This document shows, in pieces, positions 1,468-26,268 of a stretch of DNA of 29,985 bases. The DNA comes from Candidatus Dormiibacterota bacterium (GTDB lineage: Bacteria > Chloroflexota > Dormibacteria > Aeolococcales > Aeolococcaceae), in contig DAIDIX010000002.1 in NCBI GenBank assembly GCA_027451645.1, forward strand, positions 1-29,985. The letters are read 5' to 3'. The position numbers and the translations under genes were made by a program. The notes beneath the pieces are model-generated. The model made no database searches. It was not told the DNA's origin and was given only the letters and a program-made list of their open reading frames with translations. The first letter of the stretch is position 1; each line of letters opens with the position of its first letter.

Positions 1468-1630
1468 GCTGCACTGCATCTCACACGATGTGTCAAAGTT
1501 GTAACCGCCTTGCAATGATTGCCTTTGATTTTCCATGCAATGATGGTGTCATTCACTCGCAACATAGGCTGAAACAACAGTGAGTATCGTGAAGAACTAT
1601 ATAATGCTGCACTGGCTCGGGAGTACGACT

Positions 1631-2449
1631 GTGAGCAAAGCTAGACACCTTAGCAGATGTCGAACAAGAGCTCAGGTAATGCCGCTCTTTGCTTTGATGC
1701 TGCCAGTGATCATTGCGCTTCTTGGCTTGACCATGTCTGGCGAGATATACCTCAATGCACGGAGTCGTCTTGATGCAGCTACTGTTGTAGCTGCAATCGC
1801 TGCAAGCGGCGATGCGTGCATGGCTTCCCAGTACTCCTACGACGAGTATGAGTGTCAATATGGAACGTATCCAGGGACTGGAGGGTCGACGACCTCAATG
1901 TATGCTGCTGGACTTCCGCCTTATAGTGTTGGAATGGAATCTCCAAGCGGATCTGGCTTACTCACAACAACTCCATCGGCATCCCAAGTTACCGAAGAGC
2001 AGCAGCTGGCATCATACTCAGCTGACAGTTCCGTGCTCAACGTTCTTCAGCAGGCCTTTCCTGGCTATACGATCAATTCGGCTGCTGCACCAACAGTTGG
2101 CCAGCCGTGCCAGGGCACTGAGTCGGGGTCTGTACCCTATGCGCTCACTGCGTGCTCGAACTATGAACAGGGCTCTTCTCTTACAAACATTGAATTTCAG
2201 GTCAACGTGAGTTCAAGTTACATGCTGGATAGTGATGATTCATCCTCGGGTACATCAGATGATGCTTCTGGTGCAGATGGTGACGAATCTGGTGGTGCTC
2301 CATATGTGTGTCCAGCTACACAGCTGTTCGCACGTCAAGTCACTGTGAATGTGTGGATGCAGGCAACCCAGCCGTTTGGCGTATTCATCGGTGAATCACA
2401 GATTCTCATGCAGGCAACGCAGACAGCATATGGATGTCTTGGGAGCTGA
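1631..2449 (+). CDS. TadG-like (Tad domain) minor pilin, 6 Cys
   Basis: Class III-type N-terminus RA|QVMPLFALMLPVIIALLGL followed by ARSRLDAATVVAAIAAS, matching the Tad-domain helix (LQxAADAAALAAA). The GTG at 1631 has GGGAG 7 nt upstream (ORF track starts at 1580). C-terminal MQATQTAY strand is typical. Confidence 0.75.
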   Translation: MSKARHLSRCRTRAQVMPLFALMLPVIIALLGLTMSGEIYLNARSRLDAATVVAAIAASGDACMASQYSYDEYECQYGTYPGTGGSTTSMYAAGLPPYSVGMESPSGSGLLTTTPSASQVTEEQQLASYSADSSVLNVLQQAFPGYTINSAAAPTVGQPCQGTESGSVPYALTACSNYEQGSSLTNIEFQVNVSSSYMLDSDDSSSGTSDDASGADGDESGGAPYVCPATQLFARQVTVNVWMQATQPFGVFIGESQILMQATQTAYGCLGS

Positions 2450-2451
2450 GA

Positions 2452-3099
2452 ATGCAGATACTTCAACTGCCACATTCACCACGGACCCAATCTCGGCATC
2501 GCTCACGAGCGCAGTCAATGGTTGAGTTTACTTTCGTATTTCCCGTATTCATAGTTATCATCTTTGGCGGAGTGGTAGCTTTCCTGTGGCAACTCGATCT
2601 GAACAGTCTGAACTTTGCTGCACAGGAAGGTGTGCAGGTTGTAGGAATGCCCAGCAATGCCCTGGGTCTTGAATGCAGTGCTGGTCAGGTAGCGTACAAG
2701 GCAGCAGTATCCGAAAGCTTCTTGGGCACGACACCACTAGTCACAGGCAGTACTGGGGCACCCTGCACTGGCAGTGTTCCAAGCAGTCAACTCCCAGATC
2801 CACTCGCCTCCTGTCCTCCAGCAGAGCGTCCGAACAGTGGGCTAGGATACAGCGTAAGCACTCCACCAACGGAACAGCAAATGATGACGTATCTCAACCG
2901 TCTCATTACGTCTTCGACATCAAATGTACTTCTTGTGTGTGCGACAGCGAACACGAATGGCGGTGCAGCGACCTCTCCAGTTGTTCTCACGATAACAATT
3001 GCGGGGTACAAGCCACTTATTGCGCCAGCACCAATACTTGGCAACCGTCTGCCAGTGTATGCGCAGGATACATATACGATTCAGGAGTTTGAGCAATGA
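2452..3099 (+). CDS. TadE/TadF-family minor pilin, 4 Cys
   Basis: SRA|QSMVEFTFVFPVFIVIIFGG is a TadE prepilin motif with Glu at +5. ATG 2452 follows GGAG, 2 nt after the upstream stop. Confidence 0.8.
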   Translation: MQILQLPHSPRTQSRHRSRAQSMVEFTFVFPVFIVIIFGGVVAFLWQLDLNSLNFAAQEGVQVVGMPSNALGLECSAGQVAYKAAVSESFLGTTPLVTGSTGAPCTGSVPSSQLPDPLASCPPAERPNSGLGYSVSTPPTEQQMMTYLNRLITSSTSNVLLVCATANTNGGAATSPVVLTITIAGYKPLIAPAPILGNRLPVYAQDTYTIQEFEQ

Positions 3100-3689
3100 A
3101 GGGCTTCCGCGCATTGCGCAGACAGAGACGTAGCCATGCAACAGGCCAAACAATGGTTGAGTTTGCAGTGCTGCTTCCAGTGATGCTTACTGTCTTTCTT
3201 GGAGCCATCGCTATTGATTCATATATCCAGGCACAGAGCCTGCTGCAGCAGGCAACGACTGAATCAGCCTTGACGATTGCGCGCAACTCCAATGATTCAT
3301 GCTCGAACGGGGATATTGGATATTCCCAGGCAATCAGCTCATTCGATTCCGCGCTAAAGTCCCCACTCTTCAGTACTCTTCCATCACCGACTATCACCTG
3401 TGTGTCAGCTACTTCTCCACAGTCGAAATGCATAGTGACTACGGGAAGCAATTCTTGCACCAATGTTCCGGCCCTCTGCGTTGACGGTTACGGTGGAGCA
3501 GGAAGTGATGGGGGCTGCTTTGGGATCTGGAGGGGAGGTGTCGTTGGCGTGGATGCTCAGGCAAATGTCACCTTGCCATGGATTCCTCTATGGAACCATG
3601 CAACTGTACAGGCTACTGCTGCAGAAGCTCTTGAGCCATTCAGGAGCCATGTATGTCCGACATCAGCAGTTCCCATAGATTACTGCTGA
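3096..3689 (+). CDS. TadE/TadF-family minor pilin, 8 Cys
   Basis: TG|QTMVEFAVLLPVMLTVFLGAI...LLQQATTESA is a TadE motif with Glu+5. ATGA overlap with the upstream gene. C-terminal VTLPWIP...ATVQATAAEALEPFRS resembles TadE ends. Confidence 0.85.
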   Translation: MKGFRALRRQRRSHATGQTMVEFAVLLPVMLTVFLGAIAIDSYIQAQSLLQQATTESALTIARNSNDSCSNGDIGYSQAISSFDSALKSPLFSTLPSPTITCVSATSPQSKCIVTTGSNSCTNVPALCVDGYGGAGSDGGCFGIWRGGVVGVDAQANVTLPWIPLWNHATVQATAAEALEPFRSHVCPTSAVPIDYC

Positions 3690-3861: not shown

Positions 3862-5850
3862 ATGACTCGATGGTATAGATGGAACCCCGAAGCACGGATG
3901 CATGTTGCTCGCATGACCGTACGGTGGGTCGTTGTAATGGGTGCGTTTGCACTAACTGCCCTTGCCAACTACCAAACTGTGGCAGCGAGCTCGCCTCCCC
4001 CAGTATCCACACTCAACTGCTATCTGGTAGGGCAGCAGCAATCGTGTCCATCTGCGAGCGATGCGACCCTTCAGGCTGCTCCAACGCCAGGTGTAGTGAA
4101 CTATCCAGAGCATTTCACAGCAACTGTGGATGCATGCGTTTACACTGAGCCTCCAGTCAATGGCAATAACCAGATTGCCCTCACAACGTGTACGAACCCT
4201 GGTGCAAATCCACCAACGAATGGAACAAATGCACTCATCAAGTGGATTCCGCAGACAGTGGTCGTGGAGTTTTACTACGGAAGCAACAATCCGGATCAGG
4301 TCTGCCAGTATGTCTCTACAAGTACTGCTGATCAGACCATCAATCTTCCATATGATCCCACGACAAGTCCAGCAAACGGTACCAAACAGCCATGTATCAA
4401 GTACACGTCTCTAGGATCCTACTCGGGAACGCCCCCAGTGTATACATTCACTTCAATCCACCAGTATGCCACTGCGAGCACGTATCAACCCGCAGTCGTA
4501 GTTGAGTGGAATGGAGCACAGCCATATACAACGTATGTTGCACAGACGTATTCCGTGCACTACGACTGCGGCAATCCAGCATCCGTTCTTGCAGGCAACC
4601 TTGTGAACTGCAACCAGTATCAAGCGCAGTATACTACCCAGCAGCCCCAGGGCTGGTGGGCAGGGAACACAAACGACCAGACCCAGTATTTCACGCAGTA
4701 CTATGTCGGAAACAGCTCTCAGGCATACACATCAGAGAATGTGTACGCTGCAGGATGGTTTCCTGCACTGAGCTCTGGACAGAGCACGTGGGCAGGATGC
4801 TGTGGCTATGACGGCTACTATGGATCTGCCTATGATGAGTTCAATGGCTGCAACAACGTTGGCGTGAGCTGGAACTGGGAAACCTGGGCTGGCACATATG
4901 TGTGGCCGGACTACAACTCCTGGTCAGGCTGCATAGGCATTGACAATGATGATGCATATACCACCGGATACTCCTCACTGACCCAGGCATATGGAGGTGG
5001 AGTCACCACATTCCCTAGTGGGATTTGGTATCCGTATCTCACAAGCTCCCCGGTAACCAGGTATGTCGACCAGCAGTACGTTGCATCCTACACAGCGAGC
5101 TATCACACTTCGCAGTACTACTGGCAGTTAGTGTACGAGTATGTGCCAGTGCAGAATGTGTATTACTACTACCAGATCAACACTGCACCGAACAACTCCG
5201 TCCAGACCACAACTGTAGTGGATACCTGCGCACAGGCAGGAGGATGTCAGTACAACTACAACGTTCCGCCACCATACTTTCAGTACTACACAATCAATGA
5301 CACGTTGAGCCAGCCTGTATTCCAGACGTCAAGCAGCTGGTCACAAGACCCGGCGTGGAAGACTGACTATACCCAGTGGCTAAGTTATGCAGTTGGGTCA
5401 TATACCGACTACTGGTACTCATACAACTGGGCATATCAGGCCTATCCCACAGGATGGAACAGCCGGTCAATCTACGCCTGCAGCTTCACTGGATGGACAA
5501 ACCTCGATCTTGATGGTGACAGTGACATGGGATATTCGTGGAACAACAACTGCTGGTACCAACAGCCCCTTGGATGGGAAAGCTATGCAGGCTATCCCGC
5601 GTACATCTTCGCAACACCTCACGGATATACCAACTACTATGGATACTGGAACGTCAACACCTGGTGGTACGGATATGTCGGCTGGAACTGGCAGCTCCAT
5701 TACTACACGACAGTCAGCTACACCAATGTCACATATCAGGAGCTCGATGGAGCATGGCATGACTGGCCATGGACAACTGTCTCAGTCTCATACAACGCAG
5801 TGAACCCTGTCACACTCCAGGTGAAGCAGATTGAGGGCAGCAAGTCCTAG
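3862..5850 (+). CDS. Large secreted Tyr/Trp/Cys-rich protein with an apparently split PKD/Ig-like domain; candidate pilus-associated adhesin
   Basis: Sec-type signal (RWVVVMGAFALTALA...VAA|SS). Manual count is about 78 Tyr, 34 Trp and 16 Cys in 662 aa, with very few Lys/Arg in the mature part. PKD-like motifs at aa 74-216 and a terminal strand VTLQVKQIEG. Confidence 0.8.
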   Translation: MTRWYRWNPEARMHVARMTVRWVVVMGAFALTALANYQTVAASSPPPVSTLNCYLVGQQQSCPSASDATLQAAPTPGVVNYPEHFTATVDACVYTEPPVNGNNQIALTTCTNPGANPPTNGTNALIKWIPQTVVVEFYYGSNNPDQVCQYVSTSTADQTINLPYDPTTSPANGTKQPCIKYTSLGSYSGTPPVYTFTSIHQYATASTYQPAVVVEWNGAQPYTTYVAQTYSVHYDCGNPASVLAGNLVNCNQYQAQYTTQQPQGWWAGNTNDQTQYFTQYYVGNSSQAYTSENVYAAGWFPALSSGQSTWAGCCGYDGYYGSAYDEFNGCNNVGVSWNWETWAGTYVWPDYNSWSGCIGIDNDDAYTTGYSSLTQAYGGGVTTFPSGIWYPYLTSSPVTRYVDQQYVASYTASYHTSQYYWQLVYEYVPVQNVYYYYQINTAPNNSVQTTTVVDTCAQAGGCQYNYNVPPPYFQYYTINDTLSQPVFQTSSSWSQDPAWKTDYTQWLSYAVGSYTDYWYSYNWAYQAYPTGWNSRSIYACSFTGWTNLDLDGDSDMGYSWNNNCWYQQPLGWESYAGYPAYIFATPHGYTNYYGYWNVNTWWYGYVGWNWQLHYYTTVSYTNVTYQELDGAWHDWPWTTVSVSYNAVNPVTLQVKQIEGSKS

Positions 5851-5913: not shown

Positions 5914-6039
5914 ACTATGGATGTATCCTGGGAAACTGTCACAAGGATGCGACTGCTACTGTGTATGCAGGAGCGAAATCCAGAGTATGATGACCATGAA
6001 AATGTGCAATGTACATTGTCCAGCCGGGCAGGAGGATTC

Positions 6040-7398
6040 ATGAAGTTCCCTCAAACAAGACACTTTGCCGTGGCAGCAGGAGTAGTGCTTGCAGCAGGAC
6101 TGCTTATGCAGGGCAGCGCGGTTCTTGCAGCCAGCTCGGGATGGACCAAATATGACCTGCCCAGGCCTTCAAGTGTTCCAGCTAGCTATGTATTCAGTGA
6201 AAATATTACCCGCATTGATTCTCTGCCTGGCAGTGGAGGAATCATAGTAGCAGGTTCAGCAGTTGGGCATGCCCCAAATGCGTCAGGCGGCCAGATATTG
6301 CCATTTGTCCAGATTGAATCCGGAGGCACTGTGCATGACATTTCGCCATCATTTCCTGGCACAAGCACAGTCGTAACATCTGTGAGTGGACTGGCACCGA
6401 ATGACATCTGGATTGTTGGCTCCTCCCAGCCAGGCAACAAGTACTCTGATGAGGTCCCATCGTACGCATTCGCAGACCACTGGAATGGAAGCAATTGGCA
6501 GCTTTCCGCGCTGCCCCAGGTGGCAAAAACTGTTCCTGGCTCACTGTACAGTGTTTCGGAGGATGCGCCAAATGATGTCTGGACAGTAGGATTCAGTGGA
6601 GCAAAGGGGGCTCCCACCAATTTCCTGTTCCATTGGAATGGTTCAGCATGGACAGCTCTCCAGGAGCCAACGGCCAACTCGTATCTGCAGGCTGTTCAGG
6701 CATTTAGTCCCCTAAACGTTGTATTCCTTGTGGGAAGCACAGTTCGCAAGGCGCCTGTCATGCAGGTGTGGAATGGGTCTTCCTTCATCAACAATGCGAT
6801 GCCTTTCCAGAATAGTGGAGCAATAGCAAGTCCAACATTTCTTTCAGGCAGTTCAGTCACAAACTTGTGGATTGCGGTGCAGGTCAACTCGCCAGCTGGA
6901 CAGCAGACTGGAATATATCACTGGAATGGCACAGGGTTTTCTGCTCTGCCAGATATGAAGTCCGTTTCAGGAGGAAACTTCTCAGTGACATCCGTTGGTG
7001 CTGTTGCGAGTGACAATCTGTGGGTGACTGGTGTTACTTCGACAGGAAGGCAGGGCAAGACGCTCATTCCTACTCCATTCATTGAGCATTTCAACGGATC
7101 ATCATGGTCTGTAGTGCAAATAACGCTCAATGGCAAGAAGACAAGTGGCGAGATTGCTGATGTGACACCTGTCAGCCAGGACACCGTTGCCTTTGCGGGA
7201 ATAACCACACCCGAGAATGGATTCATTCTTCTTCATTCGGGAACTACTGTGGCGCCACTTGATCTTGGGAAGACAGGTGCCTCAGGTTTTCCCCTGTGGC
7301 TTGTGGTGACGATTGTCGTGGTTGTTGTTCTTGCAGCAGGGGTGATAGTGACCGTAATGCAGAGACGAAAGGTAAAGAAGGGCCAGGCCAATGCGTAG
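6040..7398 (+). CDS. Secreted beta-propeller-like repeat protein (five (N/D)xWxVG...HWNGxxW repeats) with C-terminal membrane anchor
   Basis: GGAGG SD before ATG 6040 (ORF track start 5917 is upstream of it). Signal peptide MKFPQTRHFAVAAGVVLAAGLLMQGSAVLA. Repeats NDIWIVG..DHWNGSNW, NDVWTVG..FHWNGSAW, LNVVFLVG..QVWNGSSF, TNLWIAV..YHWNGTGF, DNLWVTG..EHFNGSSW. LGKTG, then a TM segment, then RRKVKK. Confidence 0.8.
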   Translation: MKFPQTRHFAVAAGVVLAAGLLMQGSAVLAASSGWTKYDLPRPSSVPASYVFSENITRIDSLPGSGGIIVAGSAVGHAPNASGGQILPFVQIESGGTVHDISPSFPGTSTVVTSVSGLAPNDIWIVGSSQPGNKYSDEVPSYAFADHWNGSNWQLSALPQVAKTVPGSLYSVSEDAPNDVWTVGFSGAKGAPTNFLFHWNGSAWTALQEPTANSYLQAVQAFSPLNVVFLVGSTVRKAPVMQVWNGSSFINNAMPFQNSGAIASPTFLSGSSVTNLWIAVQVNSPAGQQTGIYHWNGTGFSALPDMKSVSGGNFSVTSVGAVASDNLWVTGVTSTGRQGKTLIPTPFIEHFNGSSWSVVQITLNGKKTSGEIADVTPVSQDTVAFAGITTPENGFILLHSGTTVAPLDLGKTGASGFPLWLVVTIVVVVVLAAGVIVTVMQRRKVKKGQANA

Positions 7399-7978
7399 AC
7401 GCGCACTGTTTCTGTCAATGCTCAATGTATGCGCATTGGCGTGCATCGCAGCAGTTGTTGCTGCCTGTGGTAGTTCCTCAGCTCCTCAAGCTTCACCTGT
7501 GTACGTGAAGTATTCTGGGACGGGAATCGAACACACCATCAGCATTGCAGAGGGCGGCAATGGCAATGTTGCACATGTCAATGTCGACCTTGTCAACGTA
7601 GTGGATCCTATTGCAGGGAGTGTGGCGCCAAAGGGAGATAGAGCAATTGCCTTTGAGCTTGGGTTCACCTACAAGGGCATGTCTTCCTTCCAAGTGGGAT
7701 CTGATGCAACCATCACCCTCAATGCAGGCTTTGGTGCATCAGTGATGGACTCCGATGGTGTTCAGTATCTTCCAGCCTCGATCCAGCCATCTGCGACATA
7801 CCATGGTGTGAGTCCGTTTGTAACGGCACATACACTGCACACGGGAAATATACTGCCCCTAAACACGATGAAGCGTGGCCTTATCATCTTCTATGTGCCA
7901 GCAAATGCTGCAGTAGTGAGCCTCACATACCAGCCGATGAACATGACTTCGCAGCCACTTACGTGGAACTTCGGATAG
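7391..7978 (+). CDS. Lipoprotein, DUF4352-like Ig fold
   Basis: Lipobox VAA-C-GSSS. PKGDRAIAFEL and RGLIIFYVPANAAVVSLTYQP resemble DUF4352. Overlaps the upstream stop. Confidence 0.6.
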   Translation: MRRRALFLSMLNVCALACIAAVVAACGSSSAPQASPVYVKYSGTGIEHTISIAEGGNGNVAHVNVDLVNVVDPIAGSVAPKGDRAIAFELGFTYKGMSSFQVGSDATITLNAGFGASVMDSDGVQYLPASIQPSATYHGVSPFVTAHTLHTGNILPLNTMKRGLIIFYVPANAAVVSLTYQPMNMTSQPLTWNFG

Positions 7979-8793: not shown

Positions 8794-9336
8794 ATGAACC
8801 GTCGCAATCATAGGCACCAGCAGCCTGCAAAACACACTCCTACGGTGGTAGAGCCAAATCTCGACGCTGTGGGTGCCTCGCTCACTCCCCGTGCAAAAAC
8901 ACTCCTCCGCTGGCTTTTTGACCATCAGGGCGAGGATCGGCCGCTTACGGAATCCGGTCTTGCGAAAGAGGATGCAGAGCGTGCATTCTTCGAACTCAAT
9001 GATGCTGGACTTGTGAAGCTCGTTCCTGGTGCTGCTGCAGGAGTTGTTGTTCCTGATGCAGTCCGTTCTGCAATGGTTCCTGAGCGCTACCTTGTGAACA
9101 TGATTGGCGAGATGCCTGAGCAGTCTGAGGCAGCAGAAGCCTGGAAGACCGCAGCAGAGGCAATTGCTGCATATCGAGCGAAATGGAAGATCACGGATGC
9201 TTCCCATGCACTTGGTGGCGGAAGGGTCGTCATGCACGGTGCTGAGCAGCGGACTGATGCCATTGCAGCATGGGCGACAATCCATGAGTTCCGACGCATC
9301 AAGGCTGCTCAGGCTCCATCCCAGGAGATTTCCTGA
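8794..9336 (+). CDS. Hypothetical protein: winged-helix-like N-half plus segment resembling the C-terminal tail of actinobacterial MobF relaxases
   Basis: GAGGAGG SD. LTPRAKTLLRWL...FFELNDAGLV is wHTH-like. YLVNMIGEMP...AWKTAAEAIAAYRAKWKITDASHALG...QR resembles the relaxase tail as recalled. Confidence 0.65.
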   Translation: MNRRNHRHQQPAKHTPTVVEPNLDAVGASLTPRAKTLLRWLFDHQGEDRPLTESGLAKEDAERAFFELNDAGLVKLVPGAAAGVVVPDAVRSAMVPERYLVNMIGEMPEQSEAAEAWKTAAEAIAAYRAKWKITDASHALGGGRVVMHGAEQRTDAIAAWATIHEFRRIKAAQAPSQEIS

Positions 9337-25491: not shown

Positions 25492-26268
25492 ATGGCGCAA
25501 GATGCTACGACCAAGTGGACTCCACCAGAGCACACTGGTCTTGCCAAGGAAAGTGCTTTCCAGCGTCTGAGACGGCGTGCACCATGGTGGCTCCTGCCAC
25601 TGACTGTGGTGACAGTTCTCTCAGCATTCATCGTGTATGGCATGTGGACTGCGTTCTTTGGAGGCAAGGTCTACAGTGCACCCTACCTTTCGCCGTTCTA
25701 TTCGCCGCAGATCTGGTGGAATGGTCCAGTGACACCAGCTCTCTGGGTGCTTCCTTTCCCGCTCCTCTTCCGGGCAACGTGCTACTACTACCGGAAGGCG
25801 TATTACCGGTCCTTCTTCTGGGACCCTCCGGCATGCGCAGTCGGGGAAGCGAGGAAAAAGCCGTACAAGGGTGAGACGAGGTTCCCACTCTTTCTCAGCA
25901 ATCTGCACAGGTATGCGATGTACCTTGCTGTCATTGTTCTCATCTTCCTGTGGATTGATGCTGTTGCTGCCTTCGACCTCAATGGGCATTTCTATTTCGG
26001 CCTTGGCACAGCAATCATGGTCATCAACTGCATCTTCCTCTCCGCATACACGTTCGGCTGCCACTCTGTACGGCATCTCGTTGGTGGATGTGTTGACTGC
26101 TACTCGCGCGTTCGGGGTGGGGCAAAGCGGTATGAAGGCTGGAAATTCATTACAAGGCTCAATGAGCACCATGCAATGTGGGCATGGCTCAGCCTCTTCA
26201 GTGTCGTAGCAACAGATGTCTACATCCGGCTCGTGATGACAGGCATCATCATTGATCCTCACTTTTAG
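25492..26268 (+). CDS. sdhC: Succinate dehydrogenase membrane anchor, actinobacterial Sdh1 (Rv0249c-like) type
   Basis: YLSPFYSP, FRATCYYYRKAYYRSFF..PPACAV, GETRFPL...HRY, YTFGCHS.RH..GG, LNEHH..WAW.SL, DVYIR. First gene of the sdhA/sdhB operon. Confidence 0.85.
   Translation: MAQDATTKWTPPEHTGLAKESAFQRLRRRAPWWLLPLTVVTVLSAFIVYGMWTAFFGGKVYSAPYLSPFYSPQIWWNGPVTPALWVLPFPLLFRATCYYYRKAYYRSFFWDPPACAVGEARKKPYKGETRFPLFLSNLHRYAMYLAVIVLIFLWIDAVAAFDLNGHFYFGLGTAIMVINCIFLSAYTFGCHSVRHLVGGCVDCYSRVRGGAKRYEGWKFITRLNEHHAMWAWLSLFSVVATDVYIRLVMTGIIIDPHF

Follow-up and report, generated by a model that had tools for sequence, protein, structure and literature searches.

A tyrosine- and tryptophan-rich, probably secreted protein of Dormibacteria, with a putative two-piece immunoglobulin-like base, encoded beside a Tad pilus locus

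Introduction

Trios of minor pilins form the pilus tips of the Tad systems of Myxococcus and Caulobacter, and several alternative trios can coexist in one genome (PMC12075869; PMC12607857). In type IVa pili non-pilin tip proteins are known (PMC12607857), and in one genus the tapirins, which are non-pilin cellulose binders, are encoded beside a type IV pilus locus (10.1101/359786). Here we analyse a gene of Dormibacteria, which are abundant in soil, uncultured and almost entirely uncharted in their surface biology. It lies in a stretch of 29,985 nucleotides (contig DAIDIX010000002.1 of assembly GCA_027451645.1, Candidatus Dormiibacterota bacterium), which we will call the window, where positions 3862-5850 of the forward strand encode a protein of 662 residues that is exceptionally rich in tyrosine and tryptophan. 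This protein is referred to as P0001 and all residue numbers are those of P0001. We tentatively propose, with a probability of roughly 0.45, that it is a surface- or polymer-binding adhesin working together with a Tad pilus.

The PilY1/PilC proteins of Pseudomonas, Neisseria and Myxococcus are similar to P0001 in that they are large, carry a Sec-type and not a prepilin signal and are encoded together with minor pilins. They are thought to reside at the pilus tip along with the minor pilins and to mediate adhesion. PilY1 binds calcium, and the acidic loops of P0001 (described below) are suggestive of a metal site likewise. However, P0001 differs from PilY1/PilC in that it contains neither a vWA nor a PilY1 propeller domain in Pfam and NCBIfam scans and has no sequence likeness to these proteins, and also in that it neighbours a Tad pilus, a type for which neither PMC12075869 nor PMC12607857 mentions a non-pilin protein at the tip.

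A second parallel is found in the tapirins of Caldicellulosiruptor (Calkro_0844 and its relatives), since both they and the P0001 family are non-pilin, secreted, restricted to one genus and encoded beside a type IV pilus locus, with no relatives in other groups. Tapirins, whose phylum and pilus class are different from those of P0001, attach to an insoluble polymer. In addition, the P0001 family profile does not match any solved chain at E up to 10, tapirins included, and a split immunoglobulin (Ig)-like base, such as we propose for P0001, is not reported for tapirins.

As for the tips of Tad pili themselves, KilL/KilM/KilN in Myxococcus and CpaJ/CpaK/CpaL in Caulobacter represent the same arrangement as seen here, with three minor pilins encoded together and several paralogous sets present in each genome. 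The binding module is also borne on the tip in these systems, but as an extra domain fused to a pilin, while P0001 is a separate protein which lacks the pilin helix: PF07811 (TadE) does not match P0001, while it matches the three upstream neighbours, and comparison with these neighbours in hhalign results in a probability of 0.5% at most. P0001 would be comparable in function to PilY1/PilC or to the tapirins, while being unrelated to both. We see in it an interesting orphan and not a system of a new kind.

If the proposal is correct, Tad pili are able to work with a binding protein that is separate from the pilins, as type IVa pili do with PilY1 and Caldicellulosiruptor with tapirins. This would hint at the attachment targets of Dormibacteria, and the base of P0001 would provide a clear example from nature of an Ig-like domain whose last two strands are separated by a very large insertion. 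The value of the case is limited by the occurrence of the family in one genus, by the lack of any indicated ligand and by the fact that all the functional steps are inferred.

Coding sequence, composition and conservation

The open reading frame (ORF) at 3862-5850 (+) consists of 662 codons plus stop, and its ATG is preceded at 8 nucleotides by GGGGGT. It is a genuine gene and it is under strong purifying selection. One orthologue, with 86% identity, is found in a Candidatus Dormibacteria metagenome-assembled genome and another, P0002, with 51% identity, is found on several contigs, both in conserved synteny. All 16 cysteines of P0001 are kept in both orthologues. In comparison with the 86% orthologue, the ratio of non-synonymous to synonymous substitution rates (dN/dS) of the whole gene is 0.058 and that of the middle region 0.044, at a dS of ~1.5, which is near saturation. 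With such a low dN/dS the middle region must be constrained and is presumably folded, and so it does not represent a loose linker.

The first 43 residues (3862..3990, +) read as a probable Sec signal peptide, with an arginine-rich start, a hydrophobic core and a cleavage site near VAA/SS, and a Pfam scan of P0001 did not reveal any TadE or prepilin motif at the N-terminus. The protein is therefore likely to be exported, and we expect it to be extracellular, acidic and disulfide-bonded. In line with this, lysine and arginine together contribute 2%, but this is less special than it may appear, since other apparently exported proteins of the same genome are similarly poor in these residues. The special feature of P0001 is instead its aromatic content, with tyrosine and tryptophan making up 16.9% of the protein as compared to a genome mean of 3.7% (standard deviation 1.6) for the 1333 ORFs that have 250 residues or more. 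P0001 ranks first among all of these, with the runner-up at 11.2%, and the bias is far above chance.

Between residues 217 and 649, Tyr+Trp reach 21.5% (64 Tyr and 29 Trp), accompanied by 10 Cys, 2 Arg and 1 Lys. A preliminary description of this DNA, made from the sequence alone, had arrived at exactly these counts by hand for a stretch of ~430 residues and had remarked on the near absence of basic residues, of which there are indeed only three. The strings that it quoted are also found near the expected positions: APTPGVVNYPEHF from residue 73, then WIPQTVVVEFYYGS, VCQY, LPYDPTTSP, PCIKYTS and HQYATASTYQPAVVVEW within residues 128-216, and VTLQVKQIEG at residues 650-659. In contrast, the Y-x-Y-x-W alternation that it pointed out is not above the level of shuffled sequences, as aromatic pairs at i/i+2 number 20 (23.2 +/- 3.8 in shuffles) and Ar-x-Ar-x-Ar triples number 4 (5.3 +/- 2.4 in shuffles). 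The alternation is therefore explained by composition alone, and the beta-ribbons with aromatic ladders that had been imagined for this region find no support either in the aromatic spacing, which lacks i/i+2 periodicity, or in the full-length structural model (see below).

The family to which P0001 belongs is very narrow and comprises one genus of uncultured soil Dormibacteria along with a few metagenome sequences. A word-indexed search through 5.8 billion proteins returned P0002 as the sole match, and when 1.84 billion cluster representatives were scanned in full with phmmer, three further relatives (P0003, P0004 and P0005) were added. Six-frame searches detected the family in 3 of the 374 genomes of the class, all from one genus of Dormibacteria, with two and three copies, respectively, in two sister genomes; among 401 sampled genomes of the phylum only one further, doubtful match (E 0.002) was found outside the genus. 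No Pfam or NCBIfam family matches P0001, a profile search against PDB sequences gave no match at E up to 10 either with the full length or with the N-terminal domain, and the protein atlas contains no usable match, either to P0001 in full or to its middle region alone. The idea that P0001 belongs to a family of PKD-like proteins from actinobacterial Tad loci and integrative and conjugative elements (ICEs) is not supported, as the homologue searches gave no relative outside one Dormibacteria genus. The Tyr+Trp content varies across family members from 9% to 17%.

Architecture of the family and the proposed closure of the N-terminal domain

The eight full-length members (658-986 residues) are all built in the same way, with an N-terminal beta-sandwich domain followed by a long middle region and by a C-terminal L-x-V-x-Q motif. 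Alignment of nine N-terminal domains revealed 23 invariant residues, including C62, P63, Y81-P82-E83, W128, Q176-P177-C178, H200, Y202, Y208, P210 and W216. The middle region is very variable both in length (~420 residues in P0001 and up to ~600 in the largest member) and in sequence, with conserved islands that include C-Q-x-N-Y-N-V-P-P-P-Y and two acidic loops. Despite this wide variation in the preceding region, L652, V654 and Q656 of the L-x-V-x-Q motif are invariant in 8/8 full-length members. The motif is found within the last 10-15 residues and is usually followed by x-E/Q-P, while in P0009 it is followed by a tail of 28 residues.

The C-terminal hairpin at residues 637-657 (5770..5832, +), which contains the motif, is proposed to provide the closing strand or strands of the N-terminal domain. 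In a two-chain ESMFold2 test the N-terminal domain and the last 45 residues were given as separate chains, with our own alignments supplied. The resulting scores were 0.71, 0.73 and 0.70, while the best of 3 controls scored 0.00. The mark used is reached by 58 of 80 solved complexes and by 2 of 110 mismatched pairs, although these counts are only roughly valid here because our own alignments were used. Confident contacts connect residues 637-657 to residues 62-72 and 75-79, to parts of 126-144, and to 202 and 204-222. They include the first (68-73) and the last (211-219) strands of the model of the domain, which is the position of the closing strand in an Ig-like sandwich. The hairpin thus probably folds back to complete the N-terminal domain, and the pairing of the two ends suggested in the preliminary description is supported at the level of the model.

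The N-terminal domain itself (residues 44-219; 3991..4518, +) appears to be Ig-like on the basis of AlphaFold2, VIA-align, hhalign and the nine-sequence alignment. AlphaFold2 modelled residues 44-236 as an all-beta sandwich, with a predicted local distance difference test (pLDDT) score of 68 and a predicted template-modelling (TM) score of 0.67, where the last modelled strand (AVVVEWNGA, residues 211-219) continues into low-confidence coil. A VIA-align comparison with this model gave generic Ig-like sandwiches and nothing else, at Z 4-5.3. The PKD domain 4xed is one of the tied rows (Z 5.1, root-mean-square deviation 2.9 Å over 80 residues), at a Z that is shared with many Ig-like folds and is below the usual best Z of 7-8, and it is aligned over chain residues 0-81 of 97, so that the end of the PKD chain is left unmatched. 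Foldseek did not find any match to the model in PDB or in the AFDB clusters (best TM 0.3), and a shape search of the ESM Atlas returned generic Ig-like families only (DUF11, PKD and CARDB, TM ~0.4).

Similarly to PKD domains (PF00801 / PF18911, e.g. 4xed), the beta-sandwich of P0001 contains H-x-Y...Y-x-x-x-V-V in the two final strands of its N-terminal piece, here as H-x-Y...Y-x-P-x-V-V at residues 200-214. H200, Y202, Y208 and P210, all invariant in the family, are aligned with H-x-Y...G-x-Y-x-V-x-V, the motif that PKD domains carry in their penultimate strands. Comparison with true PKD repeats in hhalign resulted in a probability of 43-45% (E 2e-4 for a single comparison), with the alignment spanning Q-P-C...H-x-Y-A-T-A-x-T-Y-x-P-x-L-V-V, and one of the nine members, P0002, matches Pfam PKD_4 below the cut-off (E 0.02, 15.4 bits vs 27). 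On the other hand, P0001 itself does not match PF00801 / PF18911 even at E up to 10, and the W-x-F-G-D-G turn is absent, with the PKD segment YTFSFGDG placed opposite CIKYTS-LGSYSG in the hhalign alignment. The domain also differs from PKD in being about twice the usual size, with long loops, and in having its proposed last strand ~420 residues away. The likeness to PKD is therefore weak. Since the Pfam match is below cut-off, the hhalign probability is 43-45%, the W-x-F-G-D-G turn is missing and the C-terminal piece brings no gain (see below), we describe the base as Ig-like with a PKD-like motif and not as a member of the PKD family. Of the PKD/Ig-like fold proposed earlier, the all-beta Ig-like sandwich is supported by the model, while the PKD identity is doubtful.

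The profile of the N-terminal domain produced weak matches in other Dormibacteria, with E 0.001-0.009 per genome. Three of these, in two proteins, were checked and are all situated within true tandem PKD repeats. Very large proteins with many near-identical tandem PKD repeats are encoded in other Dormibacteria (loci L048 and L044, genomes G155 and G418), with an open frame of 2157 residues in G155, and they represent the only weak matches to the profile outside the genus.

The middle region (residues 220-636; 4519..5769, +) is non-repetitive. An internal two-fold duplication over window positions 4567-5739 was considered and rejected, as BLASTP of the halves did not detect any and hhalign of five-member alignments gave a probability of 0.13%. 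The region contains two acidic loops that stand out by conservation, bear a resemblance to calcium-binding loops and are possible metal sites. In the first one, D-N-D-D-A-Y (residues 361-366; 4942..4959, +), P0001 and P0002 agree in D361, D363 and D364, and paralogues have the pattern G-D-x-D-D. In the second one, N-L-D-L-D-G-D-S-D-M-G (residues 547-557; 5500..5532, +), D549, D551, G552, D553 and D555 are invariant in A1 and D-x-D-G-D-x-D is kept in five members; this is a possible Ca2+ site, as judged from its general DxDxDG-type motif.

Does the middle region then represent an insertion into the domain? It had been described as ~430 inserted residues, and a long middle region is indeed present in 8/8 full-length relatives, with a length that varies up to ~600 residues. 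However, none of the relatives has it short: neither the homologue searches nor the N-terminal domain profile search detected an insert-free form with a short hairpin, and so an evolutionary insertion is not demonstrable. The sole short ORF, P0005 (276 residues, L050 1581-2411), contains the N-terminal domain only and lacks the C-terminal motif, and its TGA comes 17 nucleotides short of the end of a metagenome contig of 2.4 kb. Either truncation of the copy or faulty assembly may account for this ORF, which, because the stop is near the contig end and the end motif is absent, is poor evidence for an insert-free form.

Genomic context

Gene content and order place P0001 at the distal end of a chromosomal Tad (type IVc) pilus locus. 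Three genes for TadE/TadG-like minor pilins come first, followed by P0001, a membrane-anchored repeat protein and a lipoprotein, and then by topA and housekeeping genes. The first of the three (289 residues; 1580..2449, +) is minor-pilin-like, in a TadG-like position, with a weak N-terminal match to TadE (E 0.0068). The other two encode TadE-like minor pilins, one of 221 residues (2434..3099, +; PF07811 at E 1e-6 and 29.2 bits, above cut-off) and one of 197 residues (3096..3689, +; PF07811 at E 4.4e-9 and 36.8 bits). Directly downstream of P0001 is a partner gene of 493 residues (5917..7398, +), with a signal sequence, ~6-7 propeller-like repeats of HWNGSxW type, a weak match to the Rax2 beta-propeller and a C-terminal membrane anchor. 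The conserved block ends with a probable lipoprotein of 195 residues (7391..7978, +), which has a lipobox-like AACGS and no likeness to the small genes beside other paralogues.

The genes at both ends of this block, for the 289-residue protein and for the lipoprotein, are syntenic in the P0002 locus and in L018, and the gene has stayed syntenic with the minor-pilin trio at 51% identity. Around P0002 the block extends further upstream to CpaB/RcpC, a 71-residue gene and two T2SSF genes, with the 71-residue gene occupying the position expected for Flp pilin. The mobile-element (ICE) setting implied in the preliminary description can be rejected, since the locus is chromosomal and its neighbours are topA, rpsB, tsf, pyrH, frr, uppS, cdsA, dxr, rseP, ispG and sdhAB. 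It was also rejected by hhalign that the domains of P0001 arose from the repeat protein or from the heads of the adjoining pilins (probability at most 0.5% for the pilins).

The paralogues present a mixed picture, with TadE genes found in the neighbourhood of two lineages and not of three others. P0009 adjoins another TadE gene pair and a CpaB gene. In a sister genome P0007 is directly followed by a paralogue of the 493-residue repeat protein (28% identity, E 2e-29), from which it appears that the repeat protein and the P0001-type gene were duplicated as a pair. Near P0008, an ORF of 816 residues (L015 12453-14903) with weak matches to Tectonin and to WxL (cell-wall-binding) is a candidate surface protein.

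The genome to which P0001 belongs (G000, ~2 Mb) contains three T2SSF (TadB/TadC) pairs and nine TadE-type matches on five contigs, which suggests that it has several Tad systems or spare tip sets. Its Tad genes are distributed over contigs C16, C24, C123, C27, C72, C121 and C170. No secretin was detected in this genome, which is 84% complete, and so the cell may lack an outer-membrane channel.

Proposed role and alternatives

In the mechanism that we propose, an Ig-like (PKD-like) beta-sandwich base would be assembled from two separated pieces, with residues ~64-219 contributing most of the strands and the C-terminal hairpin (~637-657) returning against the first and the last strands of the base. 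The ~420 residues in between would project from this base as a compact, non-repetitive and strongly constrained Tyr/Trp-rich head with its two acidic loops. Aromatic side chains exposed on the head would bind an external surface or polymer, with a glycan as our best guess, and P0001 would be presented at or near the tip of the Tad pilus or on the adjoining part of the envelope. We favour a pilus-linked adhesin because of the Tad context, the extracellular character of the protein and the precedents of PilY1/PilC and of the tapirins. The association with the pilus is suggested by gene order.

A number of observations weigh against this proposal. No homology of P0001 points to any ligand. The exposure of the aromatic residues is not supported by a structure, as the AlphaFold2 model of the full length (from 9 sequences) has a pLDDT of 31 and is unusable. 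The fold-back of the hairpin comes from one predictor working with shallow alignments of 8-9 sequences and, since two separate chains were used, the docking cannot separate pairing within one molecule from pairing between molecules. In a test of the spliced sequence, with the C-terminal piece appended to the profile of the N-terminal domain, local hhalign did not show any gain in PKD score over 20 column-permuted controls, and hence sequence alone cannot confirm the identity of the C-terminal strand. There are also difficulties with the context: no TadE gene is found within ~7-9 kb of P0007 and P0008, or in ~8 kb downstream of P0004 (where the upstream side is cut by the contig end), and four other TadE clusters of the same genome do not have a P0001-like partner. 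Finally, a promoter and terminator scan of the 172-nucleotide gap before the gene found nothing beyond chance, and no public sequencing runs are listed for the P0001 gene.

The strongest competitor, although rather unlikely in our opinion, has P0001 acting independently of the pilus, as an exported, disulfide-rich protein of the envelope or matrix with a structural or wall-binding role. It might, for example, bind the cell's own wall polymer or form part of a surface layer, and adjacency to Tad genes would be a regional accident. This would account for the absence of TadE genes near P0007 and P0008 and downstream of P0004, and also for the nature of the partner that travels with P0007, which is a membrane-anchored repeat protein and not a pilin. 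Runs rich in aromatic residues and glycine, such as GYTNYYGYWNVNTWWYGYVGWNW, are reminiscent of wall-binding repeats, although they have no Pfam match. However, P0001 lacks repeats and does not match any known wall-binding domain, two independent paralogue lineages adjoin TadE genes and CpaB, and the synteny with the pilin trio has been maintained at 51% identity.

The pilus-linked adhesin can also be put in a bolder form, in which the P0001 family would give Tad pili their first tip or accessory component that is not a pilin. It would be a counterpart of PilY1, in a lineage for which a secretin was not detected, with a base left open so that the invariant C-terminal hairpin can close it in cis, dock it on a minor pilin or connect copies in trans, and with a head of new fold binding an environmental polymer. 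We regard this extended version as distinctly unlikely.

Two further possibilities concern the way in which the base is closed. Donor-strand exchange, by which chaperone-usher and type V pili are built, could let the C-terminal hairpin of one molecule fill the groove in the N-terminal domain of the next one and so produce a self-assembling fibre. The two-chain docking fits both closure in cis and closure in trans, the motif at the C-terminal end is invariant and the last modelled strand of the N-terminal domain runs into low-confidence coil, but there is no sign of polymers, and the neighbourhood does not encode a chaperone, usher, sortase or processing protease. Closure in cis would, moreover, be simple, because the ends of the middle region would be adjacent in the hairpin position, and this leaves donor-strand exchange with a slender chance. 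Alternatively, the C-terminal strand could dock P0001 onto a TadE-like minor pilin by strand complementation, which would make P0001 a true tip subunit. P0001 does adjoin the minor-pilin trio, and type IVa pili have known non-pilin tip proteins (PMC12607857). Nevertheless, we consider such docking improbable, as the N-terminal domain already scores strongly and specifically with the C-terminal strand of P0001 (0.71) and P0001 shows no profile similarity to the pilins encoded next to it.

Glycan-active enzymes often have aromatic-rich clefts and acidic residues, and so P0001 might instead be a secreted enzyme acting on polysaccharides or phenolic polymers, with an aromatic cleft and with the acidic loops as catalytic or metal sites. 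The strong constraint on the middle region would be consistent with this, but no enzyme family is matched in Pfam, NCBIfam or PDB sequences and there is no match in the protein atlas, which makes an enzyme very improbable. An electron conduit along chains of Tyr and Trp is hardly credible, since it is favoured by the high content of these residues and by nothing else, while the aromatic spacing is not periodic and the block contains neither a redox cofactor motif nor a gene for a redox partner.

Other open reading frames in the window

Two further ORFs of the window may be mentioned. One encodes 180 residues at 8794-9336, between the pilus block and topA, and has no match in Pfam or NCBIfam. 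The other one, at 25492-26268, encodes 258 residues with the second-highest Tyr+Trp content of the genome (11.2%) and no Pfam match; because it is situated just upstream of the genes for the flavoprotein and iron-sulfur subunits of succinate dehydrogenase, it may represent a membrane subunit.

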